A stretch of DNA of 36,566 bases from Gemmatimonadota bacterium. Lineage in GTDB: Bacteria; Gemmatimonadota; Gemmatimonadetes; Palauibacterales; Palauibacteraceae. This document shows positions 1 to 21,725 of the stretch, one piece after another (within the stretch, counting starts at the first letter, position 1; each line of letters starts with the position of its first letter). Both the position numbers and the translations under genes were made by a program. The stretch lies in contig JBDGUY010000001.1 in the NCBI GenBank assembly GCA_039585935.1, positions 1 to 36,566 on the forward strand. Direction: 5' to 3'. The notes beneath the pieces were generated by a model. It was not told the DNA's origin. It saw only the letters and a list, made by a program, of their open reading frames with translations, and ran no database searches.

Positions 1-300
1 CCGGGTAACGCCCGGGCGCCGAGAGGCGACGGAAAGTGTCACAGAGATCAGACCGCCGATGGCGGCTTCGGCCGCACAGGCAAGGGTGAAAAGGTGGGGT
101 AAGAGCCCACCGCGCTCGCCGGCGACGGCAGCGGCACGACAAACCCCATCGGGAGCAAGGCCAAACAGGAGCGAGCGGTAGCCCGCCGCGTTCGAGCTCC
201 GGGTAGGCTGCATGAGGCGTCGGGTAACCGGCGTCCCAGATAGATGACCCCGCGGGCTTAACGGCCCGTCACAGGACCCGGCTTAACTCCCTCCGCATCT
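1..300 (+). ncRNA. rnpB: RNase P RNA (bacterial type A), 5' portion cut off by the window edge
   Basis: Collinear match to conserved type-A RNase P blocks: GGGUAACGCCCGGG (3-16), GGGUGAAAAGGUGGGGUAAGAGCCCACCG (84-112), GGGAGCAAGGCCAAACAGG (151-169), GGGUAGGCUGCAUGAGG (201-217), CAGAUAGAUGA (237-247) and the P4 3' strand ACAGGACCCGGCUUA (271-285). The 3' end (~300) is estimated because the P1 partner lies outside the window. Confidence 0.9.
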
Positions 301-348
301 CCATATATATCCAGATCCTTGCGAGGATCGCTCGAGGGTGCGACGAGG

Positions 349-3081
349 TCAGCGGTCGCTGCCGCCTTCCATGGCTGTCGCGTCTGCGGGATCAGCGAGC
401 GCCCGGAACCTTACGGCCTTCGTCTGAACCGGGATCTGGACACGACCGGTCTGGCCCCCGATCAATCGGACCGGCGTCGGGTCCGGAAGCCGTGCCCTCG
501 ATGGCAGACTCTGCAGCATGATCTCGACCGAGTACTGCCCCGGGCGAAGTGAATTGAGCCGCACGGTTCCATCCCGACCGGTTTTCAAGGCCCAGGCGGA
601 TCCCGGTTCGTTCACCAGCGACACTGAGACATCAGACAGCGCGTTCTCTCCCGGATCGCGTATGCCGTCTCCGTCCTCGTCGAGAAAGACTTCGATCTCC
701 AGCGCCGTCGCAGGGACGATGGGAACGCCTATGTGCGGGGCGGTCGGAACCACCGGCGACTCTGGAGGAAGCAGTCCCGATTCGAGAGAGGTGGGGTCGA
801 TAGTAACAGAGGCCCGACCACCCGCGGTGACGAAGCGGAACCGACCGAGCCCGTCCGTCACAGCCTCTTCTACGCCCGACCGCACCAGGACTCCGGCAGC
901 GAGCGGCTCGGTTCCGGTGCGGACTCCATTTCCATCTCTGTCAATGAACACCACGCCACTCAGGGGCGCCGGCTTCTCGATCGGCATCGCGAGATCGAGC
1001 TGCTGGCGGATCCCGATGGAGGCCTTCCAACCGCGAACCGAACCTGGCCCGAATTCCTGCACAGTCTCGGCACCCAGCATCAGAACCGTGCCCCGAAGAG
1101 CTACGACCTCTGCACCGATCTGGAGCAGCGGGTTGCGGTAGGTGAACGACCGACCGAGCGGCAACGCGCCGTTCACGAATATCGAAGCTCGACGGAGAAG
1201 CCTCTGGCTCGCTCCGAACTCGAGTAGTGTCTCGGCCCCGAACATGGGCTCGTACGCATGCCGGAGTCCGCCGCGGATCCAGCCGGCACCACGGTACCAA
1301 TGTGCCCCGACGCGCGCGTACCGGACCGGACTGATCAACCCCTCGCGGCTTACAACGCCCAGTTCCAGAGACCCGTCCAGAAATACATCGCCCATCGGAA
1401 GAGCGAGGTTGGCGACCGCCGTGCTATAGGTCCGGGAATCGAGATTCTTCCAACTGCGAACTCTGCCAAGGAGATCTACGCTCGCTCGACCGCTGAACAG
1501 TCGGCCACCAAATTCCGCGCCCTTGCGCTCCGGCTCGATTTCACTGCCGAGCAGTGGATCTCGCTCGAAGTAGACGCCTCCCAGAACGCCTACCGTCCGG
1601 GAGACTCCCAGTACGCCATTGGCTCTCAACTGGCGACCCGGGAGGCGGCTCTCTTTCCCGATACCGGGGATGGTGCGAGCGCGCAGGTCCAGGGCACTCG
1701 GCCCTTTGCGATATGAGTAGAGAGCCTGGATGGCGGGACCGGTCGCTTCCTCGCCGGATTCAAAGTCCTGAACCCGCATCCAGCCGGCCTCGACAGATGC
1801 CAGGTGAGCCGATCCCCCTGTCCAATCGACGGTAGCCAGCGCGCTCATCACGCGGCTGCCGACATCGGGATCGAACAATCCCCTGCGTTCCACGTCGTCG
1901 ATTCGAAGACCGACGGTCGACCAGGAGAGAGAGCGGTCCAGGCGACCAGAGACGACGTGGCCGTCCGCCTTGGTACCACCAGTCGTCGGCGCCGCTACGA
2001 GGGCATTGACCATCCAGGGGCCCTTGCTCGCCCGCAGATTGCCACCGATTCCCTGCTGAACGTTGCCCGACAGGGCCGATGTGTGGAGCGACAATTCCCC
2101 GAGCGCTGCCTCGAATCCCGGACGCCGGAGAGCCAGGAAATACCTGGGACCGTATGGAGCGCCGCGAAACGCGAAGCTCATCCCCTCTTGCGGCGTGCTG
2201 CGGAAGCCGTATTCGATCTCGGTCTCGGCTGCCACTGCGCCCCGACCCCAGACGGCGATTACTGGATTCGCGACACTGCTCGCATCCGCTCTCTGCCGGA
2301 TCGTGGTTCCCACGAAGACCGATGTGGGAACTCGAACCACGCCTGAGAACAGGCCACCCGGCTCCTGGATGACGGATGAGACATCGGCCGGTATCGCCGT
2401 CTCTCCTTCGACCGTGAGGCGAGCGGTTGCTGCCGTACCGATCGCTGCGTCCGGGAACACCTCCAGTCGCAGGATGCCTTCAGCTGACTGCCCCTGGTCG
2501 AGAACGAATACCGGCGGAGGCTCGTCAGCCGCCAGGTTGGAGTGTGGTACCGCGAGGATGACTGCCGTATCGGTCGCGTTCCCCACGTTCGTGACCCTGA
2601 AATGAACCTTCAGCGTGCGGCCACGGGACGCCCTGCTCGTGGAATCCACCGAGAGCTGGAACTCCTGCAGCCGGCGCACTTCGACTCGAGCATCGACGGT
2701 ATCCTGTCTGCCGGCCGGTCCTTCGAGTACGACACGAGCGATCGTCTGGTCTCCGGCAGTCAGGTCGGAGCGCAGGGCCACGGTTACCGGGATCAGCCGC
2801 TCCTCGCCGGCAGACCAGGAGTACACCCCCGCCGCCGGTCCCATGAGCCGTCCGGCATCGACCTCGAGGATCGTATAGCCAACGGTCAGGCTGTCAGCAG
2901 ATCCGGTGTTCGATAGAGATGCCGGTATCTCGATACCCACGGTGACGATCTCGCCGGCACCTCGTGTGGAAGATTCCTGTGCCCGGGCGATTCCGGAGTG
3001 CATTCCCGACAGAGCCACCAATGCGAAGAATCGGCTCGCCGTGCGGCAAGTCCGATTTCGGCTCCACGCGAGGATATTCAT
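349..3081 (-). CDS. 910-aa secreted/outer-membrane protein with an N-terminal Ig-like (CARDB-like) region, a central beta-barrel-like region and two C-terminal SdrD-B/Cna-B-like repeats; candidate usher-like pore or fibre-associated adhesin
   Basis: Track ORF 349..3252 trimmed to ATG 3081, which forms an ATGA overlap with the upstream stop (3078-3080). The trimmed N-terminus MNILAWSRNRTCRTASRFFALVALSGMHSGIARA-QE looks like a signal peptide. The centre is rich in alternating-hydrophobic strands (AEFGGRLFSG, ASVDLLGRVRSW, VFLDGSLELGVV, ARVGAHWYRG, LLQIGAEVVAL, WKASIGIRQQL). The C-terminus (nt ~352-966) has two repeats with D-x-D-G-x-G motifs (VFIDRDGNGV..GRFRF; VFLDEDGDGIRD..RDGTVRLNSLRPGQYSV). 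That it is coding is confident; the function is inference. Confidence 0.6.
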   Translation of the reverse strand: MNILAWSRNRTCRTASRFFALVALSGMHSGIARAQESSTRGAGEIVTVGIEIPASLSNTGSADSLTVGYTILEVDAGRLMGPAAGVYSWSAGEERLIPVTVALRSDLTAGDQTIARVVLEGPAGRQDTVDARVEVRRLQEFQLSVDSTSRASRGRTLKVHFRVTNVGNATDTAVILAVPHSNLAADEPPPVFVLDQGQSAEGILRLEVFPDAAIGTAATARLTVEGETAIPADVSSVIQEPGGLFSGVVRVPTSVFVGTTIRQRADASSVANPVIAVWGRGAVAAETEIEYGFRSTPQEGMSFAFRGAPYGPRYFLALRRPGFEAALGELSLHTSALSGNVQQGIGGNLRASKGPWMVNALVAAPTTGGTKADGHVVSGRLDRSLSWSTVGLRIDDVERRGLFDPDVGSRVMSALATVDWTGGSAHLASVEAGWMRVQDFESGEEATGPAIQALYSYRKGPSALDLRARTIPGIGKESRLPGRQLRANGVLGVSRTVGVLGGVYFERDPLLGSEIEPERKGAEFGGRLFSGRASVDLLGRVRSWKNLDSRTYSTAVANLALPMGDVFLDGSLELGVVSREGLISPVRYARVGAHWYRGAGWIRGGLRHAYEPMFGAETLLEFGASQRLLRRASIFVNGALPLGRSFTYRNPLLQIGAEVVALRGTVLMLGAETVQEFGPGSVRGWKASIGIRQQLDLAMPIEKPAPLSGVVFIDRDGNGVRTGTEPLAAGVLVRSGVEEAVTDGLGRFRFVTAGGRASVTIDPTSLESGLLPPESPVVPTAPHIGVPIVPATALEIEVFLDEDGDGIRDPGENALSDVSVSLVNEPGSAWALKTGRDGTVRLNSLRPGQYSVEIMLQSLPSRARLPDPTPVRLIGGQTGRVQIPVQTKAVRFRALADPADATAMEGGSDR

Positions 3082-3539
3082 GTTCCCTTGGCCGTGAAGC
3101 GCAGGACGGCATCGTAGCTTCCTGGTGCGTCCCTGTCGGCAAACAGGAGAGCCCGAAAGCGAAGCAGCACGTCCGATCGACCTGCTCCCTGCAGCACCAC
3201 CTGGTTGGCCAGGTCGACCGGCATCCAGCCCCCGGCTCCTTCGACCTGCCACTCGAGGTCGGAGACCGGCTTTCCGTAGCCGCCCATGTCGAGATCATCG
3301 GACGCGAGACACAGTGTCCAGGATTTCTTCTTACCCCTCGGATTGACTCGCACCGTGACGGTTCCGGACATCACCCACCCGACGAAAAAGTCCATTCCGG
3401 TGGGATTGGGAAAGACTACCGGATCAGGAGCGACGTCGACCTTGGACCGATCTGAACCGGAAGCGCACGCCGCCTGGGCGGATACGTCGCCTGCGAGCAT
3501 CAGAAGCAGACAGAGACCGAGTCCCAGCGAGCGGATCAT
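3078..3539 (-). CDS. 153-aa secreted pilin-like beta-rich protein (minor subunit candidate)
   Basis: Signal peptide MIRSLGLGLCLLLMLAGDVSAQA. There are two Cys residues (AACASGS, WTLCLASDD). The C-terminal motif PGSYDAVLRFTAKGT is paralogous to the C-terminus of the 171-aa protein. GAGG lies 7 nt upstream of ATG 3539, and the stop overlaps the next start (ATGA). Confidence 0.6.
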   Translation of the reverse strand: MIRSLGLGLCLLLMLAGDVSAQAACASGSDRSKVDVAPDPVVFPNPTGMDFFVGWVMSGTVTVRVNPRGKKKSWTLCLASDDLDMGGYGKPVSDLEWQVEGAGGWMPVDLANQVVLQGAGRSDVLLRFRALLFADRDAPGSYDAVLRFTAKGT

Positions 3540-3555
3540 TCACTGACCTCGCGCC

Positions 3556-4398
3556 TCAGGGAACGCGGAAGGGAATCTGCGTTCCGGCCAGGTACTCTCC
3601 ACCGAAGTCGAGCATCGGGACGGCGAGGTATTGTCCCGGGGCGAGCTCATCCGGAAGTCGAACCGCCAGCTGGCGCTTCGAACCGGGAAGCACTGTGAAT
3701 GCTCGTACATCACTCGAAGCCACCACCGTTCCACGGAAGTCCCGGACCTCGACGGTCCCGGCGGGCCAGGCGGGCGCCCCTCCCGTGTTCGCGTATTCGA
3801 GTTCTACTGAGCGGGATCCGTCCTCTTCGACGATCGAACCGGCATGGAACTCACCACCAGGCGAAGTCGATTCGCCGATTCCGAACACCTTCACGCCGAT
3901 ACGCTGGTTGATTACCACTCCGGACTCGGAGGTGGCTGGACTCTCGACGAAGATCATGAACCAGCAGGACTCATCCCCGGGGCCACCAGGAATCTCGAAC
4001 CGTACCTGCTGAGACTGACCGGCCTCTACCGACAGGGCATCGGGTGTGATCCGGACATCGTCCCCGCAGCTGCTCGCTTGCGAGCCACTGGGGAAATAGG
4101 TGTGATCGCCCTCCGGCGACTGGTCGAAGTCGACCGACTGCAGCCGGAATTCCAATGACCCGTCACTCTCATTCCGGATCGAGACAAGCCCGACCGAGGT
4201 GCCGCCGTCGACCTCCCGGGGAAGCGTCAGGATCACCGGACTGACCGAGAACTGCGCCTGGCCACTGGCCGGTGCGAAGAAGGCGGCGCAAGCAAACAGG
4301 CCGAACGCGATACGCGTCCGGCCTGCCAGGCTCTTCGAGCTCGCAGCTCGACTCACTGATCGCGCCACTCTACCCCTCATTCTCTTCACCGCGTTCAC
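3556..4398 (-). CDS. 280-aa periplasmic two-Ig-domain protein, PapD-like fimbrial chaperone candidate
   Basis: Signal-like N-terminus (..IAFGLFACAAFFAPASGQA-QF). The mature part begins FSVSPVILTL..SVGLVSIRNESDGSLEFRL. It is followed by ITPDALSVEAGQSQQVRF, ESCWFMIFVE and RIGVKVFG, which resemble by eye the conserved strands of PapD_N-type chaperones. A second beta-rich domain follows (GEFHAG..IPFRVP). The start is either GTG 4398 or ATG 4380. Confidence 0.55.
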   Translation of the reverse strand: MNAVKRMRGRVARSVSRAASSKSLAGRTRIAFGLFACAAFFAPASGQAQFSVSPVILTLPREVDGGTSVGLVSIRNESDGSLEFRLQSVDFDQSPEGDHTYFPSGSQASSCGDDVRITPDALSVEAGQSQQVRFEIPGGPGDESCWFMIFVESPATSESGVVINQRIGVKVFGIGESTSPGGEFHAGSIVEEDGSRSVELEYANTGGAPAWPAGTVEVRDFRGTVVASSDVRAFTVLPGSKRQLAVRLPDELAPGQYLAVPMLDFGGEYLAGTQIPFRVP

Positions 4399-4424
4399 CG
4401 GCCAGCGTGTCGAGAACGGCGCGG

Positions 4425-4940
4425 TCAGTTCGGAACGACCGTGTACGTGAAGCCGAGATCGTACGTGCCGGGCACGTCGAGGGCCTCGTTGAGAAGGATC
4501 TGGTAATTCACCGTGGCGCTCCCCGCACCTGCCGGTTCTGCGGTCACGATGTCAGCGGCGGTCGTCGAAATCGGAACGAACGCCGCTCCATCGACCGAGT
4601 ACTCGAAGTCGGATGCCGGCTTGCTGTAGGTGGATCCGGTCGGTGTGAAGGCAGTCGCGTTGGCCTTGATCTCCACGTCGTGCGCCACGTTACCGAAGTA
4701 CGTCAGGGTGCTGGTCTCGTTGGCGTCGACCACGCCGAGATCGAATTCGGTAGCGGTCGGAGTCGGAAACGTGATGTCGTTGACGTCGATGCTGATGAAT
4801 AGAATCGATCCGATCGTGAGCTGAGCAGACGCCGGAACGGACGCTGACGTTGTTCCGATGCCCGTGGCCTGGGCGTTGGCCGTCCGAGCGGTAGCGCCGA
4901 ACATTGCAACGGCGGCCGCAAGCAATAGCAGCTTCTTCAT
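4425..4940 (-). CDS. 171-aa secreted pilin-like beta-rich protein (major subunit candidate; SCPU/DUF4402-like by eye)
   Basis: Classic signal peptide MKKLLLLAAAVAMFGATARTANA-QA. The mature protein is T/S/A-rich with no Cys. An N-terminal alternating strand (ASAQLTIGSILFISIDV) is present, and the C-terminus reads PGTYDLGFTYTVVPN. It is the first gene of the operon, with a purine-rich GGGGGA upstream of the ATG. Confidence 0.6.
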   Translation of the reverse strand: MKKLLLLAAAVAMFGATARTANAQATGIGTTSASVPASAQLTIGSILFISIDVNDITFPTPTATEFDLGVVDANETSTLTYFGNVAHDVEIKANATAFTPTGSTYSKPASDFEYSVDGAAFVPISTTAADIVTAEPAGAGSATVNYQILLNEALDVPGTYDLGFTYTVVPN

Positions 4941-5382
4941 GTCTGGTATTCCCCCGTATCAGAGTTCGCCCGGTATCCGGGTCATCCCCGGCGGACGGTC
5001 CGCGTCGGCCGTCGTGGGGCCGTGTTCACTGGCGTTGGGGCAAGCGGTGTTCCCATCGCGGTCTGAAGCCGTTCCGGGCGATCTCCGACGAATGCAGTGG
5101 AGGTGCAGTAAGTAGCTGTGTAAAAACGTGTTACGGGGGATGGTGCGAGGTACCGACGAAGGGCGCCCTGATCGCCCGGTGTCGCCCGGACAAGTCGGGT
5201 TCAAGCGGCGACTTCCACAACCATGTGGTGTCTTGCAAGAACATTTTGCAGTACAGGCCCGCAACAGCAGGCCACGGATCAGAACCGCGTGTTGCGGTTG
5301 AGGGATGCCGAATTTGCAGGTATGTTCGGGCTCCCGAATCTTCTTGTCGTGACGTACCGACTCCCCGTTTCCTGGAACGCGT

Positions 5383-6717
5383 GTGACGAGCCACGGATCA
5401 GCCGCCGGCACCCGATTCCCGTTCGAGCAACGAACGCTCGACAACGGGTTGCAGGTAATTGTGCACCCGGACGCCTCGGTGCCGCTCGTCGCCACGCACC
5501 TCATGTATCACGTGGGAAGCAGGAACGAGCCGCCCGGCAGTCGCGGCTTCGCGCACCTGTTCGAGCACCTGCTGTTCCAGGGATCGGAGAACGTTCCTGA
5601 AGGCGAGCACTTCAGCCGGATTCAGTCGGCCGGCGGGACGCTGAACGGCACCACCTGGTTCGATCGAACCAACTATTACGAGACGCTGCCGTCGGGTGAT
5701 CTCGATCTCGCCCTGTGGCTCGAATCGGATCGGATGGGCTTCTTCCTGCCGGCGATCACGCAGGCCAAGCTGGACAACCAGCGCGACGTTGTGAAGAACG
5801 AGCGCCGCCAGTCTTACGAGAACCGTCCCTACGGGCTCGCGGTGGAAACGATGCTCGAACGGGCCTACCCGGAGGGGCACCCCTACCGGCACCCGACGAT
5901 CGGATACATGGCCGATCTCGACGGAGCGTCACTCGACGACGTGAGGCAGTGGTTCGAAAGCTGGTACGGACCGAATAACGCGGTGCTCGTGATCTCGGGA
6001 GCGGTGGAGCCGGATGATGCGTTTCGTCGGGCGGAACGCTGGTTCGGGGAAATCCCGGCGCGACCGACGCCGGACCGGGGCGAAGTGCCGATCGTGCTGA
6101 ACGGCAAACCGGGAGAGGTCGTTGTCCCGGACCGGGTCAGTGTGCCGCGCGTGTACATGATGTTTCATGCGCCCCCGTTCCCGGATCCCGGTTTCGAGCC
6201 GGCGGATGTCCTGTGCTCTCTGCTCGCGGAGGGACGGAGTTCCCGCCTGTATCGGGCCCTGGTGTACGAGCAGCGCGTCGCGGCTGATGTGAGCGCGTTC
6301 GTCTGGCCGTCGGAGTGCGTGGGAATGTTGTGGGTCGTCGCGACGGGACGGCCTGGTGTCGACGCCGAACAACTCGAGTCCGCGGTCACGGAGGTACTCG
6401 ATCAGCTTCGATCGTCGGGCCCCACCGAGATCGAGCTCCAGGGAGCCCGGAACAGGGCCCGGAGACAGCTCGTTCGCCAGCTGGACTCCGTGACGCGCCG
6501 CGCCGATCTGCTCGCGCACGCAGCTGTGCTGCGGGGTGATGCCGGCTACATCAACCAGGTGTTCGAGCGCTACGAGCAGATGCCCCCCGACGAAGTGGCG
6601 CTGTCCGCCCGTACCTTGCTCGATCCGGCCCGACGCTCCGTCGTGCACGTCGTTCCCGATGGCTCGCGCGGCGGAGCCGAAGACGTCGCTGTGGCTGCCG
6701 CCGGAGAGGAGAGTTGA
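5383..6717 (+). CDS. M16 (pitrilysin-family) zinc metallopeptidase, catalytic subunit
   Basis: Inverted zinc motif HxxEH in GFAHLFEHLLFQGS, with typical M16 N- and C-domains; 444 aa. Confidence 0.9.
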   Translation: MTSHGSAAGTRFPFEQRTLDNGLQVIVHPDASVPLVATHLMYHVGSRNEPPGSRGFAHLFEHLLFQGSENVPEGEHFSRIQSAGGTLNGTTWFDRTNYYETLPSGDLDLALWLESDRMGFFLPAITQAKLDNQRDVVKNERRQSYENRPYGLAVETMLERAYPEGHPYRHPTIGYMADLDGASLDDVRQWFESWYGPNNAVLVISGAVEPDDAFRRAERWFGEIPARPTPDRGEVPIVLNGKPGEVVVPDRVSVPRVYMMFHAPPFPDPGFEPADVLCSLLAEGRSSRLYRALVYEQRVAADVSAFVWPSECVGMLWVVATGRPGVDAEQLESAVTEVLDQLRSSGPTEIELQGARNRARRQLVRQLDSVTRRADLLAHAAVLRGDAGYINQVFERYEQMPPDEVALSARTLLDPARRSVVHVVPDGSRGGAEDVAVAAAGEES

Positions 6718-6718
6718 C

Positions 6719-8074
6719 GTGAGTGCCGTAGATCGCACCCGTCCGCCACCGTCTCAGCCGACTCCGCCGCCGGCGACACCGGAGTTTCACGAAACGGTCC
6801 TGTCCGGCGGATTTCGGGTCCGGGTCGCCACTGTCCCGAAGCTCCCTGAGGTCGCGATCCGGCTCATGGTGGATGGCGGCGCGGCGGTGGAATCCGCGGA
6901 AGATGCGGGCGTCGCGGCGCTCACCACCAAGGTGCTGCCGGCGGGAGCGGCCGGCCGCACGGCCATGCAGATGGCCGAATGGCTGGATCAGCTGGGGGCT
7001 TCGATTGGCAGCGGTGTCGGGCATGACTCGGCCCGGTTCTCCCTGCACACCCTGTCGGATACATGCGAGGAGGCGCTCGATTATCTGGCTTCGATCGTAC
7101 TCGCGCCGTCGTTCCTGCCCGAAGAAGTCGCCAGAGTCCGGGCGGAGCGACTGGACGAAGTCCGAAGAAGCGGTGACGAGCCGAGTGAGTTGGCCTCTGA
7201 GGCCCTGTCGGAGGCCGTGTTCGGTGATCATCCATACGGCAGACCGGTTCGGGGCCGGGTGGAGACGCTGGAGACGCTGGACAGCGCTCGTCTCCGCAGG
7301 TTCTGGGAGAGCAGCTACGAAGCGGGCTCGTCCTTCCTGGTCGCGGCAGGAGATGTGGATCCCGAGGCGTTCGTGGCCCTGGTCGAGCGGAGCTTCGGCG
7401 CATGGGCCTCCGGTGACGGGAGGAGCGCCGCGGTCAGACAGCCGGGGCCGGTAAATTCGGCGGGGAGCGTAAGGCTCGTCGACCGACCCGGAAGCCAGCA
7501 ATCCGAAATCCGGATCGGCGCGGTCGGCCTGGCCCGGGGAGACGAAGACGAGATTCCCGTTCTCGTCATGAACGCGATCCTGGGCGGACTGTTCAGTTCC
7601 CGGATCAACCTGAATCTCCGCGAAGACAAGGGGTGGACGTACGGTGCTCGCTCCGGATTCTCCATGCGACGAGCACCGGGGCCGTTCGTGGCGAGTGCTG
7701 CCGTCGACACGGCCGTCACCGCGCGGGCATTCGAGGAGATGCTGTCCGAGATTCGCAGCATGACCGAGCGGCCGCCCTCGGAGGAGGAGCTGGCACTCGC
7801 GCGCAACGCCCTGATTCTGTCCCTGCCTAGGCAATTCGAGACGACCAGTCAGGTCGCCTCGAAGGAGGCGGAACGAGTCGCGTACGACCTTCCGCCTGAC
7901 TGGTGGACGCGGTTTCCGGCCCGGGTCGAGAAGGTGGGTCGAGACGATGTCGTACGGATGGCGGAGCGGTACCTGGATCCTGCAGGGCTGGTAATGGTCG
8001 CCGTCGGTGAGGCAGACGCGCTGCGCGCTGATCTGGCGGCATTCGGAACTGTCGAAGAGCGTCCGGCACCTTGA
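6719..8074 (+). CDS. M16-family peptidase-like protein lacking the HxxEH motif (non-catalytic partner)
   Basis: Track ORF 6536..8074 trimmed to in-frame GTG 6719, 1 nt after the upstream TGA and preceded by GGAGAGGAGAG. The M16 fold pattern is present, but the zinc-motif position reads GVAALTTKVLPAGA. Confidence 0.85.
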   Translation: MSAVDRTRPPPSQPTPPPATPEFHETVLSGGFRVRVATVPKLPEVAIRLMVDGGAAVESAEDAGVAALTTKVLPAGAAGRTAMQMAEWLDQLGASIGSGVGHDSARFSLHTLSDTCEEALDYLASIVLAPSFLPEEVARVRAERLDEVRRSGDEPSELASEALSEAVFGDHPYGRPVRGRVETLETLDSARLRRFWESSYEAGSSFLVAAGDVDPEAFVALVERSFGAWASGDGRSAAVRQPGPVNSAGSVRLVDRPGSQQSEIRIGAVGLARGDEDEIPVLVMNAILGGLFSSRINLNLREDKGWTYGARSGFSMRRAPGPFVASAAVDTAVTARAFEEMLSEIRSMTERPPSEEELALARNALILSLPRQFETTSQVASKEAERVAYDLPPDWWTRFPARVEKVGRDDVVRMAERYLDPAGLVMVAVGEADALRADLAAFGTVEERPAP

Positions 8075-17170: not shown

Positions 17171-18121
17171 ATGGGCCTTTGGGACCGGTCTTACACAGGA
17201 GGGCCGCAGCGGACCGCGGGAGGCGGATTCGGATTCGGCGCGGGCGGAGGCCCGACCGGGGCGGGTCGCCGTGACCCGTTCGCGTCGCTCACTCCGTGGG
17301 TTAAGAGACTCCTGGCAATCAACTTCGGGATCTGGGCGTTGCTGGCCATCGGCCTCATCCCGTGGGGCGCCGCCAGCGATCTCCTGGCGTTCCGAGCTGA
17401 CCGGATACTCACACGGCCATGGACGATCGTCACATATATGTTCGTTCACGCCGGGTTCGGGCACGTGTTCTTCAACATGCTCGCACTGTTCTTCTTCGGA
17501 CCACCTCTGGAGCGGACGTGGGGAGGCCGGGAGTTCATTACCTACTACCTGGTATGCGGTGTCGGTGGGGCGATCGCGGCGCTGCTGCTCGTGAACATCG
17601 TCGGAGTCGCGCCAATGGTGGGAGCCTCGGCCGCCATTTTCGGAATTCTACTGGCGTTCGCGATATCCTGGCCCGACGCCCCGATCTATCTCTGGTTCCT
17701 GCTGCCGATCAAGGCGAAGTACTTCGTAGGATTCCTCGCCCTGCTCACCCTGTATTCGACGATTACCGCGAGTCGCTCGACGGGTGGAACGGCGCACTGG
17801 GCACACCTTGGTGGTCTGGTCGCGGGCTGGCTGTGGCTCCGATACGGAAACCGAATCGAGCAAGCAACGGATCGGGCGGTGGTGAAGGTGAAGAAGTCGC
17901 GACGAGGCCTGAAGACGGTCAAGCGCGAATCGACCGATGCCGGACAGAAGCGGACTGCGAAGCGTAAACCGCGGACTCCACGCACCGGTGATACGCTGGA
18001 CGAGGTGAACCGGATTCTGGACAAGATCGGCGAAAAGGGAATGGAATCTCTCACGCCGGCCGAACTGAAGTTCCTGAATGAAATGAGTCAGCGGAGGACG
18101 GACCCGGACCGAAGGCACTGA
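17171..18121 (+). CDS. Rhomboid-family intramembrane serine protease with a basic/helical C-terminal tail
   Basis: Catalytic GASAAIFG (GxSxxxxG) and a downstream HLGG, with multiple TM helices. The C-terminal tail reads ..KRKPRTPRTGDTLDEVNRILDKIGEKGMESLTPAELKFLNEMS. Confidence 0.88.
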   Translation: MGLWDRSYTGGPQRTAGGGFGFGAGGGPTGAGRRDPFASLTPWVKRLLAINFGIWALLAIGLIPWGAASDLLAFRADRILTRPWTIVTYMFVHAGFGHVFFNMLALFFFGPPLERTWGGREFITYYLVCGVGGAIAALLLVNIVGVAPMVGASAAIFGILLAFAISWPDAPIYLWFLLPIKAKYFVGFLALLTLYSTITASRSTGGTAHWAHLGGLVAGWLWLRYGNRIEQATDRAVVKVKKSRRGLKTVKRESTDAGQKRTAKRKPRTPRTGDTLDEVNRILDKIGEKGMESLTPAELKFLNEMSQRRTDPDRRH

Positions 18122-18217
18122 GACCCGCCGACCGACCTTTCGGGTCGCCAACGACGCGGATAGAATGGCAGGTCTGTCCCTCTTCGAATCACTTCCCAGC
18201 CTGGAGGAAAAGGCGCG

Positions 18218-20314
18218 ATGGCTGTCGAATACCGTTCCTCTAACATCAGAAACGTCGTTCTTCTCGGTCACGGTGGAAGTGGCAAGACGACTTTGACCGA
18301 TGCGCTGTGCTATATCGCCGGCTCCACCTCGCGACGGGGTCAGGTCGAGAACGGGACGTCGCACACGGACTTCACGCACGAAGAGATCGACCACGGGATC
18401 TCCATCAATCTTACAGTCGCCCGAGCCGAGTGGCTGGACACGAAGCTCAACCTGATCGACACCCCGGGATACCTCGATTTCTTCGGTGAAGTCGAGGCGG
18501 GAGTCAGGGTTGCCGATGGAGCTCTCGTGGTCGTCGGCGCCACGTCGGGAGTCGAGGTAGGGACGGAGCGCTGCTGGCGCGCCGCCGAGCGCCGCGGCAT
18601 TCCGCGCATGGTATTCATCAGCATGATGGACCGGGAGAACGCGAGCTTCGACAAGGCGTTTCAGCAGGTCCGCGAAACGTTCGGCAAGGGAGCCATTCCG
18701 GTCGAGGTGCCGATCGGCAGCGGCGAGAACTTCAGCGGAATCGTCAACTTGTTTTCCGGCCACGCTCATCACTACCGGCCTGGTTCTGACAAGGGCGAGT
18801 ACGATCACGTCGAGATTCCCGACGAGGTGGCGGCTACGGTCGACAGCTACCGCGAGCAGCTGATCGAATCGATCGCCGCAACGGATGACGCCCTGCTCGA
18901 GGCGTATCTCGAGGGCGAAGAGCTGGATCGTGAGCGGGTACTCGCGGGGATGAAACTCGGAATGATGCGGGGTGAGCTGTTCCCCGTGTTTTGCGGTTCT
19001 GGCGCCAGCGGGAAGGGGGCTCGCGCCGTTCTCAAGAAACTCGTAGAGCTGATGCCCGACCCGACGGAAATTGGAGTCGTCGAGGCCGAGGATTCGCGCG
19101 GCAATGCCGTGGAGCTGGAACCCGCCGACGCATCCCCGATGACGGCTCTCGTGTTCAAGACCACGCAGGAACCCAGGGTCGGGGAATTGAGCTTCTTCCG
19201 CGTGTTCACAGGCGTGGCCGAGAGTGGTGCGACGGTGGACAACCCATCGCGTGGCGGCAGTGAGCGCATCTCGCATGTCGGGATTCCTGACGCCGCCACG
19301 CGTGGAGAGGTCGAGAGACTGCATGCCGGAGACATCGGCGTGGTTGCCAAGCTCAAGAACACGCACACCGGCGACACCCTGAGCACGGGAGGAAAGGGTC
19401 TGACTCTGCCGGGAATCTCCTGGCCGAAAGCGGACATTTCGATCGCTCTGCGTCCGGCTTCGCGTGGAGAGGAAGACAAGCTGTCCAACGGTCTGAGCAA
19501 GCTGCACGAGGAGGATCCTACCTTCTCCGCGAGCTTCGAGCCGGAACTCGGTCAGACGATCGCTCGAGGGCTTGGCGAGCTGCACCTGAACATCGCGATG
19601 GAGCGATTGTCGCGGAAGTACGGGGTGAAGGTCGAGACCGAACCCCCGCGGATTCCGTACCGGGAGACGATCACGAAATCGGCTGAGGGACAGGGGCGAT
19701 ACAAGAAGCAGACGGGCGGCAGGGGTCAGTTCGGAGACTGCTGGCTGCGGATCCGCCCCCGGAGTCGCGGCGAGGGCTACGAGTTCACCAACAAGATCGT
19801 CGGTGGCTCGATCCCCGGGAAGTTCATTCCGGCCGTGGACAAGGGAGTGAAGGAAGCTTCGGCGCGCGGCGTGATCGCCGGATATCCAGTCGTCGACTTC
19901 GAGGTGGAATGCTACGACGGATCGTACCACTCGGTCGACAGCTCCGAGAACGCGTTCAAGGTCGCCGGCTCGATGGCGTTCCGGAAGGTTGCGCAGCAGG
20001 CGCGGCCGATCCTTCTGGAGCCGATCATGACCGTCACGGTCAGAGTGCCGGAAGACTATATGGGCGAGGTGATCGGTGACCTGAACCAGCGCCGCGGTCG
20101 GATCCTGGGCATGGATGCGGACGGGCACTGGCAGGAAGTGAAGGCGCAGGTGCCACTGGCGGAACTGTACAAGTATTCGACTTCGCTGCGGTCGCTGACC
20201 CAGGGGAAGGGCTTGCACTCGCGCGAACTTCACGGATATGAGCCCGTGCCGAACGACGTCACGGCGAAGATCGTGGCGGATTCCGAAGCCCGGAAAGAGG
20301 CAGAAGGACACTGA
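18218..20314 (+). CDS. Elongation factor G paralog (EF-G2/FusA2-like)
   Basis: 698 aa with EF-G five-domain length. G1 is GHGGSGKTT and G3 is DTPGYLDF, but the G4 position reads SMMD (18620-18631) rather than NKxD. It is not in an rpsL-rpsG-fusA-tuf context. GGAGG lies upstream of the ATG. Confidence 0.9.
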   Translation: MAVEYRSSNIRNVVLLGHGGSGKTTLTDALCYIAGSTSRRGQVENGTSHTDFTHEEIDHGISINLTVARAEWLDTKLNLIDTPGYLDFFGEVEAGVRVADGALVVVGATSGVEVGTERCWRAAERRGIPRMVFISMMDRENASFDKAFQQVRETFGKGAIPVEVPIGSGENFSGIVNLFSGHAHHYRPGSDKGEYDHVEIPDEVAATVDSYREQLIESIAATDDALLEAYLEGEELDRERVLAGMKLGMMRGELFPVFCGSGASGKGARAVLKKLVELMPDPTEIGVVEAEDSRGNAVELEPADASPMTALVFKTTQEPRVGELSFFRVFTGVAESGATVDNPSRGGSERISHVGIPDAATRGEVERLHAGDIGVVAKLKNTHTGDTLSTGGKGLTLPGISWPKADISIALRPASRGEEDKLSNGLSKLHEEDPTFSASFEPELGQTIARGLGELHLNIAMERLSRKYGVKVETEPPRIPYRETITKSAEGQGRYKKQTGGRGQFGDCWLRIRPRSRGEGYEFTNKIVGGSIPGKFIPAVDKGVKEASARGVIAGYPVVDFEVECYDGSYHSVDSSENAFKVAGSMAFRKVAQQARPILLEPIMTVTVRVPEDYMGEVIGDLNQRRGRILGMDADGHWQEVKAQVPLAELYKYSTSLRSLTQGKGLHSRELHGYEPVPNDVTAKIVADSEARKEAEGH

Positions 20315-20395
20315 TCCGCCGCCGGTATCCGATCGGGGATTTCTTCGGCGGTTCGCGAAGGAGAGTCGGACGTACGACTGACGGGAGAGACGAGC

Positions 20396-21148
20396 TTGGC
20401 CGGACATAGTAAATGGGCGCAGATCAAGCGCTCGAAGGCAGTGACAGACGCTGCCCGGGGCCGGACTTTCGGCAAGATGGGCCGAGAAATAGCGGTCGCG
20501 GCGCGTCTCGGCGGCGGCGACCCGAATTTCAATTCCCGGCTGCGCACGGCGATCGCCACGGCGAAGTCCGTGAACATGCCGGCGGCGAACATCGACCGGG
20601 CGATCCAGCGTGGGACCGGCGAGTTGCCCGGAATGAGTTTCGAGGAGACGACCTACGAAGGGTACGGACCCGGTGGCGTGGCTCTTCTCATGGAGTGCGT
20701 CACCGACAATACGAACCGTACGGTCGCGGAATTGCGGCACCGGATCGAGAAGTCCGGCGGAAACCTGGGGCAGACGGGCTCCGTGGCCTGGATGTTCGAG
20801 CGCAAGGGTCAGATTTACGTGGACGCCGGAAGATATCCGGAAGATGCCGTATTCGAGTCGGCGATCGCGGCGGGTGCCGAGGACCTGGCCACCGAGGACG
20901 ATACGCACGTGCTTACGACCGCGGTCAGTGAATTCCACGTCGTGCAGGACGCGCTTCGCGCCGGTGGAATCGAGGTGTCTGAGGCGGAACTCGCCTGGTT
21001 GCCCACCAACACGATCCGGGTGGAGGGGAGAGAAGCCGAAAAGCTCATCCGTCTGATCGAGGATATCGAAGAGCACGACGACGTAATGAAGCTGTGGGCG
21101 AATTTCGAGGTCGACGAAGAGGCGTTCGCTGCCCTGGGAGCCGAATGA
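20396..21148 (+). CDS. yebC: YebC/PmpR-family transcriptional/translation-associated regulator
   Basis: The family-typical N-terminus MAGHSKWAQIKR is obtained only with the TTG 20396 start; 250 aa. Confidence 0.93.
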   Translation: MAGHSKWAQIKRSKAVTDAARGRTFGKMGREIAVAARLGGGDPNFNSRLRTAIATAKSVNMPAANIDRAIQRGTGELPGMSFEETTYEGYGPGGVALLMECVTDNTNRTVAELRHRIEKSGGNLGQTGSVAWMFERKGQIYVDAGRYPEDAVFESAIAAGAEDLATEDDTHVLTTAVSEFHVVQDALRAGGIEVSEAELAWLPTNTIRVEGREAEKLIRLIEDIEEHDDVMKLWANFEVDEEAFAALGAE

Positions 21149-21180
21149 GAGTGCTTTCCAGCTCGCGAACCCGGGTGGGC

Positions 21181-21215
21181 AAAGGGACGGGGAATCCCCC
21201 CGTCCCTTTGGTTTT
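21181..21215 (+). terminator. Rho-independent terminator-like hairpin between yebC and ruvC
   Basis: AAAGGGACGGGG-aatcc-CCCCGTCCCTTT (12-bp perfect stem, 21181-21209) followed by GGTTTTCC. It ends 3 nt before the ruvC GTG. Confidence 0.7.
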
Positions 21216-21218
21216 CCA

Positions 21219-21725
21219 GTGAGGGTCCTCGGAATCGATCCCGGATCGGCCGCGACCGGATTCGGAGTGGTCGAAGGGACGGCCAACCGCCTGCGACTCG
21301 TCGAGTGCGGAGTGATCCGTCCGACGCGGGGAGCGCAGCTCGCCGACCGGCTTCTGGAGATTCACGATGGTGTCGCCGCCGTGATCGACAGATCCGCACC
21401 AGACTGCCTCTCGGTGGAAGGGGTCTTCTACGGTGAGAACGTGCGTACGGCGGTGATCCTGGCGCACGCTCGTGGAGTGGCCCTTCTGGCAGGGGCCGGG
21501 CGCGGCCTGGTGGTCGCAGAGTATCCGCCGGCGGAGATCAAGAAGGCGGTGGTCGGGACCGGCCGGGCGACCAAGGAGCAAGTAGGCTGGATGGTCCAGA
21601 AGCTACTGGGACTGTCGGAGCCTCCGCACCCGAGCGACGCCGCCGACGGGTGCGCCGCAGCGATCTGCCATATCCTGATCGGGACCGGACCGCTGGCGAA
21701 ACGTACGGAAAGGGCATTGTCGTGA
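21219..21725 (+). CDS. ruvC: Holliday junction resolvase RuvC
   Basis: N-terminus (GTG)RVLGIDPGSAATGFGVVE, typical of RuvC; 168 aa. Confidence 0.93.
   Translation: MRVLGIDPGSAATGFGVVEGTANRLRLVECGVIRPTRGAQLADRLLEIHDGVAAVIDRSAPDCLSVEGVFYGENVRTAVILAHARGVALLAGAGRGLVVAEYPPAEIKKAVVGTGRATKEQVGWMVQKLLGLSEPPHPSDAADGCAAAICHILIGTGPLAKRTERALS

Follow-up and report, generated by a model that had tools for sequence, protein, structure and literature searches.

A conserved four-gene cassette of Gemmatimonadota encoding a putative chaperone-usher-type surface assembly system without clean family signatures

Introduction

What kind of envelope machinery is encoded by a compact run of four genes for secreted proteins, on the minus strand at positions 4940–349 of a 36,566-nucleotide (nt) stretch of Gemmatimonadota DNA (contig JBDGUY010000001.1; the whole stretch is hereafter termed the window)? 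The four products, designated S1, C, S2 and U in gene order, comprise two small paralogous proteins (S1 and S2), a protein with two predicted immunoglobulin (Ig)-like domains (C) and a large predicted outer-membrane pore (U). Together they probably form a self-contained chaperone-usher (CU)-type system assembling a surface fibre or coat, a reading favoured because the predicted structure of C points to pilus chaperones and that of U to ushers, both encoded beside small secreted paralogues.

Of the adhesive fibres of bacteria, CU pili are understood best, and nearly all known examples come from Proteobacteria; a few archaic systems are reported from Cyanobacteria and Deinococcus-Thermus (PMC4654587). 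A literature search brought up no relevant account of pili or CU systems from Gemmatimonadota. The locus had been singled out in an earlier prediction made from the DNA letters and translations (the original prediction), which likened the four genes to the parts list of an archaic, sigma-type CU fibre; that likeness is weighed below against profile searches, predicted structures and gene order in related genomes.

Results

Gene organisation and export signals

Four co-directional minus-strand open reading frames (ORFs) span 4940–349:

S1, 4425..4940, minus strand: 171 amino acids (aa) from ATG; secreted small subunit, operon gene 1, proposed as the major polymerising fibre subunit.
C, 3556..4398, minus strand: 280 aa from GTG; predicted two-domain PapD-like periplasmic chaperone.
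S2, 3078..3539, minus strand: 153 aa from ATG; secreted paralogue of S1, proposed as a non-donating cap, tip or initiator subunit.
U, 349..3081, minus strand: 910 aa from ATG; predicted outer-membrane pore of usher-like architecture.

S1 and C are separated by 26 nt and C and S2 by 16 nt, while the S2 stop and U start overlap in ATGA at 3078–3081; the ORF coordinates and translations agree in all these points with the original prediction, which had described four consecutive minus-strand ORFs with these gaps, this overlap and signal-like N-termini. The U frame is open further upstream, as far as a GTG at 3252. Purine runs resembling Shine-Dalgarno sequences lie upstream of S1 (GGGGGAA, 9 nt before the ATG), S2 and U. 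Because the GTG of C at 4398 lacks such a sequence and an in-frame ATG at 4380 (Met7 of C) is preceded by GAAGAGA, the ATG is the likelier true start, which would shorten C to 274 aa and widen the gap to S1 to 44 nt.

All four N-termini, as read from the translations, consist of a basic n-region, a hydrophobic h-region and a cleavage site of the A-x-A↓Q type (ANA↓Q in S1, GQA↓Q in C, VSA↓Q in S2 and ARA↓Q in U), and A-x-A↓Q signal peptides are present in every U homologue too. The four proteins, encoded in one conserved cluster, hence appear to be exported by Sec; Tat export was considered for C and rejected, the twin-arginine motif being absent.

The small secreted proteins S1 and S2

Sequence comparison identifies S1 and S2 as paralogues (hhalign probability 99.8%, E 5e-28; phmmer cross-matches of ~1e-7). 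Both families contain the motifs F-P-x-P-T-x-x-D-F and K-P-x-S-D-L-x-W (more fully GKP-x-SDL-x-W) and end in D-x-PG-x-Y followed by an alternating strand. The PG[ST]YD motif plus strand that had been expected to close both proteins is indeed found, as DVPGTYDLGFTYTVVPN in one and DAPGSYDAVLRFTAKGT in the other, and its S1 form, D-x-PGTY-x-L-x-FTYTVvpN, is kept in 23 family members. The terminal G-x-Y with its strand is invariant; in known pilins, the G1 strand of the chaperone pairs with such a C-terminal element, and several pilin paralogues per operon are typical of CU systems. Neither S1 nor S2 matched any model in Pfam or NCBIfam, or any sequence in the PDB.

The two paralogues differ at their N-termini, where S1 carries an additional strand-like segment (consensus t-s-i-t-I) relative to S2, and in their cysteine content. 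S1 in this clade has none; in the S2 family, a cysteine at mature position 1–4 and Cys77 (W-x-L-C) co-vary perfectly, both being present in 23 of the 27 homologues, neither in four, and one without the other in none. This covariation implies a disulfide by which the N-terminus of S2 would be pinned to the core, leaving no free N-terminal extension. Lipoprotein identity was also considered for S2 and rejected, as A-Q-x-x-C is no lipobox and the cysteine concerned co-varies with Cys77.

S1, encoded first in the operon and distinguished by the additional strand-like segment at its N-terminus, is proposed as the strand-donating, polymerising subunit; S2, because its N-terminus would be pinned by the disulfide, is proposed to accept a strand without donating one and to serve as cap or initiator. 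Confidence in this division of roles is low to moderate.

The two-domain protein C

Relatives of C are few: only 29 were found among 5.8 billion proteins searched, every one of them unnamed. An AlphaFold2 (AF2) model built on the alignment of those relatives (predicted local distance difference test, pLDDT, 85.7) contains β-sandwich domains at 50–174 and 183–279, and on this model C would be a two-Ig-domain, PapD-like periplasmic chaperone with the two domains in a boomerang arrangement. In Foldseek searches of the PDB, C matches after WxLIP, a Gram-positive surface protein considered below, essentially only pilus chaperones, and does so across both domains: CfaA, CsuC, Caf1M, DraB, SafB, FimC, YadV, EcpB and CupB2, with E-values from 2e-10 to 1e-7, covering the alternative, archaic and classical classes of CU chaperone. 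The Foldseek alignments extend over 240–259 columns, with template modelling (TM) scores of 0.44–0.60 on the target.

The predicted structure accordingly sustains the description of the 280-aa protein as a two-Ig protein of PapD type, with matches to CU chaperones over both domains. The similarity to Ig-fold chaperones that the original prediction had anticipated in structure or profile is present in the Foldseek comparisons, but the thresholds of PapD_N and PapD_C were missed: among 27 C family members, nine match PapD_N weakly (best E 0.02) and none matches PapD_C, further weak matches of the family being to ASH, Cep192 and similar Ig domains of PapD-like type.

Three residues of domain 2 do not vary: Y257, on the strand predicted as F, R219, and R242. 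Strand F of domain 1 has no arginine, and W146 and E152 are invariant there. The protein ends in a β-strand (FRVP), with no hydrophobic C-terminal helix.

The predicted pore protein U

Word-index searches with U returned close relatives only, and distant ones were found by an exhaustive search of representative sequences; among the best 150 matches there are at least ~58 full-length clusters (50% identity), mixed with giant proteins of SdrD_B repeats whose similarity to U is limited to its C-terminal domains. An AF2 model from a 59-sequence alignment (pLDDT 86.8; predicted TM score 0.67), with secondary structure assigned by DSSP, comprises a signal-peptide helix, N-terminal β-sandwiches at 45–135 and 140–239, 26 long strands across 248–702, and C-terminal β-sandwiches at ~708–790 and 792–887. 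The barrel-like centre flanked by Ig-like domains that had been proposed for the 910-aa protein is borne out by this model.

In Foldseek, FimD and PapC account for all of the best 12 PDB matches of U (E 3e-13 to 4e-9; 750–860 aligned columns). Its barrel also matches Cir, BtuB, PirA and PfeA (E 1e-8 to 1e-6; TM 0.40–0.47 on the target), and U matches LptD (E 7e-7); the best usher E-value is ~1e5 times better than that of the best TonB-dependent receptor. As the barrel taken by itself is not usher-specific in its matches (see below), the preference of U for ushers rests on the flanking domains and the domain order. In its model, U would be a large barrel with N-terminal domains and two C-terminal β-sandwiches, usher-like at the level of architecture. 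A hydrophobic-alternation heuristic applied to the barrel strands was uninformative.

Pfam recognises SdrD_B (798–855), CarboxypepD_reg (807–883) and Ig_VWA7 (142–229) in U. Two U relatives (P0118 and P0148) carry an additional C-terminal LysM peptidoglycan-binding domain, which speaks for a periplasmic orientation of the C-terminal domains, as in ushers; through LysM, such a pore may be attached to the cell wall. Should the number of barrel strands be even, the N-terminal domains of U would be periplasmic too.

The C-terminal domains (~700–890; window 349–1000) carry SdrD_B-type DxDGDG motifs (FIDRDGNGV and FLDEDGDGIRD), which suggest that they bind Ca2+. They also draw thousands of matches to repeat proteins of 2,000–7,800 aa, swamping homology searches.

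Conservation and distribution of the cassette

A scan of 185,579 species genomes yielded 28 loci, all in metagenome-assembled genomes (MAGs) of Gemmatimonadota (Gemmatimonadales, Longimicrobiales and Candidatus Benthicola), which confirms the phylum to which the DNA had been assigned from its sequence; the scan used a single short conserved peptide pattern and is for that reason biased to close relatives. The order S1-C-S2-U was found in every locus long enough to judge (~25 Gemmatimonadota loci), with S1 upstream of C in each complete locus and S2 always between C and U. That ~25 independent MAG loci repeat these four families in an identical order is more than chance would produce. When the loci were clustered by ORF families, a comparison confined to protein-coding genes, only the cassette families were common to all, and the commonest flanking family occurred in nine loci; the flanks vary and the cassette families are constant, so the cassette is autonomous. 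In databases, all cassette proteins are named 'hypothetical protein'.

The co-occurrence of the four genes in relatives, which the original prediction had put forward as a check, extends to distant loci. Two distant, expanded cassettes (L034:4102–10252 and L036:562–6444; GC content ~0.70) have the order S-C-S-U, followed by a gene for a 135–146-aa lipoprotein-like protein and a further S gene, and contain three S paralogues, the third downstream of the pore gene. A more distant C (32% identity) adjoins a 941-aa U relative on three contigs (L001:191–8621, L002 and L003) whose neighbouring genes are annotated Candidatus Acetothermia or Bipolaricaulota. There, the genes upstream of C and U encode three secreted proteins, of 196, 488 and 332 aa, and two lipoprotein-like products with PKD domains; a domain of the 196-aa protein recurs in the C-terminal part of the 332-aa protein (E 3e-5), an arrangement that resembles a pilin and a two-domain tip adhesin. 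A predicted outer-membrane, usher-like barrel in Bipolaricaulota deserves attention because the envelope type of that phylum is poorly known.

Discussion

A putative route of assembly

Taken as a CU-type system, the cassette would operate by donor-strand complementation and exchange. Following export by Sec and cleavage at the A-x-A↓Q sites read from the sequences, C would capture S1 and S2 in the periplasm by strand complementation, its G1 strand (RIGVKVFGIG) pairing with the C-terminal PG-x-Y strand of the subunits. C would then hand the subunits to U, a predicted outer-membrane pore of ~26 strands whose four β-sandwiches would face the periplasm and dock in the manner of the N-terminal domain (NTD) and the two C-terminal domains (CTD1 and CTD2) of an usher. 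S1 would polymerise by giving its extra N-terminal strand to the next subunit and would exit through the barrel as a fibre or coat; S2, able to accept a strand without donating one, would be placed at the distal end as cap or initiator. We infer this scheme, with its strand exchange, its roles for S1 and S2, its topology of U and its fibre product, from the gene organisation, the S1/S2 paralogy, the conservation of the cassette, the S2 cysteine covariation and the folds predicted for C and U.

A number of results weigh against a CU system. No cassette protein reaches the curated threshold of Usher, PapD_N/C, Fimbrial, SCPU or DUF4402, and the absence of clean family signatures remarked on in the original prediction holds good: Pfam and NCBIfam are empty for S1 and S2, PapD_N is sub-threshold in C, and the flanking domains recognised in U are of Ig type. 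C reaches only 13.8 bits with PapD_N (E 0.059; cutoff 23), an hhalign comparison of the C family with PapD and FimC yields no significant match (probability 0.64%; of the two reference sequences, that of PapD was confirmed as identical to PDB 1pdk), and the best PDB match of C is no pilus chaperone but WxLIP of Enterococcus (9i1y/9i25; E 6e-11; 18% identity). For U, TM scores against ushers are low (0.25–0.40), and a barrel-only match to FimD (3ohn) has a TM score of 0.46, no better than those of TonB-dependent receptors; Usher of Pfam has no match in U or in 10 diverse relatives, and the U family profile recovered no usher among PDB sequences. The usher plug of FimD and PapC sits in the barrel between β6 and β7. 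In U, no insertion longer than ~19 residues is found between the barrel strands of 248–702, as against ~85 aa for a plug. For the small proteins, none of the Fimbrial, SCPU and DUF4402 models matched among 23 S1 and 27 S2 family members, SCPU (PF05229) giving no match in these 50 even at E up to 10, and an hhalign comparison of S1/S2 with CsuA/B and CupE1 (the former checked against 7zl4, the latter taken from the 8cio alignment) is not significant (probability 0.09%).

The CU parts list seen in the four genes by the original prediction consequently stands in part: the predicted structures of C and U and the synteny support it, whereas no Usher or PapD threshold is reached and U has no plug. 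The narrower assignment to the Csu or spore-coat-U (sigma, archaic) type fails by sequence, on the SCPU and DUF4402 searches and on the comparison with archaic pilins just given. As all sequence membership tests and the plug test fail, the cassette is not filed under sigma/Csu/SCPU, nor under Pfam Usher or PapD. A more specific placement is advanced tentatively, at somewhat less than even chances: a sequence-orphan branch of the CU superfamily, or a convergent analogue of it, present in Gemmatimonadota and Bipolaricaulota, with a plug-less usher of ~26 strands, tandem N-terminal Ig domains, Ca-binding C-terminal domains of SdrD_B type, and subunits unrelated by sequence to Fimbrial or SCPU pilins.

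Alternative explanations

The rank of WxLIP among the matches of C raises a different possibility, in which the cassette encodes an outer-membrane surface or export complex: U would export or anchor monomeric S1 and S2, with C as a WxLIP-like scaffold and no polymerisation. WxLIP (DUF916 plus DUF3324), from the WxL clusters of Firmicutes, is a pair of near-perpendicular Ig-like domains encoded beside small secreted partners (PMC10599100), and C is likewise an Ig pair, as predicted, beside small secreted proteins; WxLIP binds and stabilises WxL surface proteins and builds no pili (PMC10599100), and the want of detectable similarity between S1/S2 and any pilin family, like that of a plug and usher sequence signatures in U, would sit well with such a complex. 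WxLIP, however, belongs to a monoderm envelope with Gram-positive peptidoglycan and is held there by a C-terminal transmembrane helix, whereas C ends in a β-strand and has no such helix; the WxL, DUF916 and DUF3324 models of Pfam have no match in C, S1 or S2, and WxL clusters have no outer-membrane barrel partner. The other top matches of C are, moreover, all pilus chaperones, and the combination of small paralogues bearing a C-terminal strand motif with the domain order seen in U is better explained by a CU fibre. A surface complex of this kind is considered rather unlikely. The structural match of C with WxLIP indicates that there may be an evolutionary link between WxL clusters and CU chaperones, and hints at a common origin of Ig-pair surface-protein scaffolds in monoderms and diderms.

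The matches of the U barrel to Cir, BtuB, PirA, PfeA and LptD would also be expected of a barrel for nutrient uptake or other transport, akin to TonB-dependent transporters or LptD, with S1 and S2 as its substrate-binding or accessory partners and C as an unrelated periplasmic protein of Ig fold. The N-terminus of U nevertheless consists, in the model, of two Ig-like sandwiches, with no plug or TonB-box domain, and ushers lead all transporters by ~5 orders of magnitude in E-value, on which grounds identity with a TonB-dependent receptor or LptD was rejected; the U gene is invariably accompanied by genes for a PapD-like protein and for small secreted paralogues, and no conserved TonB, ExbBD or Lpt genes lie beside the cassette. 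Such a transporter has but a slight chance of being the right explanation. Slighter still is the chance that the resemblance is convergent or over-read, with generic sandwich and barrel folds serving an unrelated envelope function: all sequence tests against CU families being negative or sub-threshold, and the global TM scores being modest, speak for it, but two independent proteins match both partners of one known system beside conserved small paralogues, a combination hard to obtain by chance. The CU-type system remains the probable explanation.

Relation to known chaperone-usher systems

Compared with the classical systems (PapD/PapC, FimC/FimD and Caf1M/Caf1A), the cassette is similar in the usher matches of U and in the matches of C to FimC, Caf1M, DraB and SafB across both domains. 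It differs in the low identity (10–18%), the lack of a plug in U, the other accessory domains and the failure of the Fimbrial model to detect S1 and S2. In the hhalign comparison, whose alignment is plausible yet non-significant (probability 0.64%), ESLFYFNLREIPP and KIKLFY of PapD lie opposite ESCWFMIFVESP and GVKVFG of C, ES-CWFMIFVESP is paired with ES-LFYFNLREIPP, and K170 of C (in GVKVFG, at least 90% conserved) lies opposite K112 of PapD. Arg8 of PapD, the second anchor residue of the classical systems, has no evident counterpart in C; a manual alignment would put the corresponding strand A1 position near P54/I56, and P54 is at least 90% conserved.

The likeness to non-classical systems (Csu, that is CsuA/B-CsuC-CsuD, CupE, CFA/I and ECP) lies in the compact operon, the small secreted paralogues, the two-domain chaperone and the large pore, with CfaA and CsuC the closest structural matches of C after WxLIP. 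CsuC has a two-domain carboxylate anchor (Arg89/Tyr196/Arg174), found in archaic and alternative chaperones (PMC4654587); Y257, R219 and R242 of C may correspond to Tyr196 and Arg174, and the arginine of domain 1 strand F is absent in C. Archaic pilins carry a conserved cysteine pair (PMC4654587), to which the co-varying pair of S2 may be comparable; the first cysteine of S2 is at the mature N-terminus, and S1 in this clade has none. Unlike archaic and alternative systems, the cassette has no detectable SCPU in S1 or S2 and no PapD or Usher Pfam membership in C or U. In place of a single NTD, U has two N-terminal Ig-like domains (NPCBM_assoc/Ig_VWA7-like), and it further differs from non-classical pores in its SdrD_B/CarboxypepD_reg C-terminal domains, in ~26 rather than 24 predicted strands and in having no plug insertion. 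No two-domain tip adhesin is present in this window.

Were the CU reading true, the principle would be extended to Gemmatimonadota, a common but little-studied phylum of soil and sediment, and to Bipolaricaulota. On the more specific placement as an orphan branch or analogue, fibre assembly of donor-strand type would have an earlier origin and a broader spread than a view centred on Proteobacteria allows, with a structural link to the Gram-positive WxLIP. A plug-less pore with different periplasmic domains would then amount to a natural experiment on usher gating and on chaperone-subunit recruitment. Current hidden Markov model libraries are blind to all four components, so that the cassette escapes surveys of genomes for secretion and adhesion systems. 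Even if the fibre reading fails, a conserved and unannotated four-protein envelope module of at least ~58 clusters at 50% identity has been delineated.

Genomic neighbourhood

The operon promoter is presumed to lie in the region upstream of S1:

Divergent intergenic region, 4941..5382, 442 nt, no strand assigned: between S1 (minus strand) and an M16 peptidase gene (plus strand); presumed operon promoter and regulatory region.

This placement is by position alone because the region contains no match to the sigma-70 consensus, and a promoter and terminator scan of it gave nothing exceeding the shuffle background. GC content is even throughout the window, and there is therefore no hint of recent horizontal transfer.

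On its other side the cassette is bordered by rnpB (bacterial class A RNase P RNA; 1–301, plus strand), which is truncated by the 5' boundary of the window and converges with U, 47 nt separating it from the U stop; rnpB does not figure among the ORF families shared with other loci, a comparison confined to protein-coding genes. Ten genes sampled beyond the cassette, encoding two M16 peptidases, MutS, EF-G, a PALP enzyme, Ddl, RuvB, QueA, Tgt and RsmB, are all housekeeping genes; the setting originally described, between rnpB and a housekeeping block, is correct for rnpB and for these 10.

Two tandem genes for M16 (insulinase-type) peptidases, at 5383–8074, are divergent from the cassette. Relatives of the second were found in ~8 of the 28 loci of the genome scan, so its link to the cassette is weak. 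Very long antisense ORFs oppose the housekeeping genes, for example one of 1212 aa (17648–21286, minus strand) opposite EF-G; these are the usual artefact of a GC content of 64%, and not genes.

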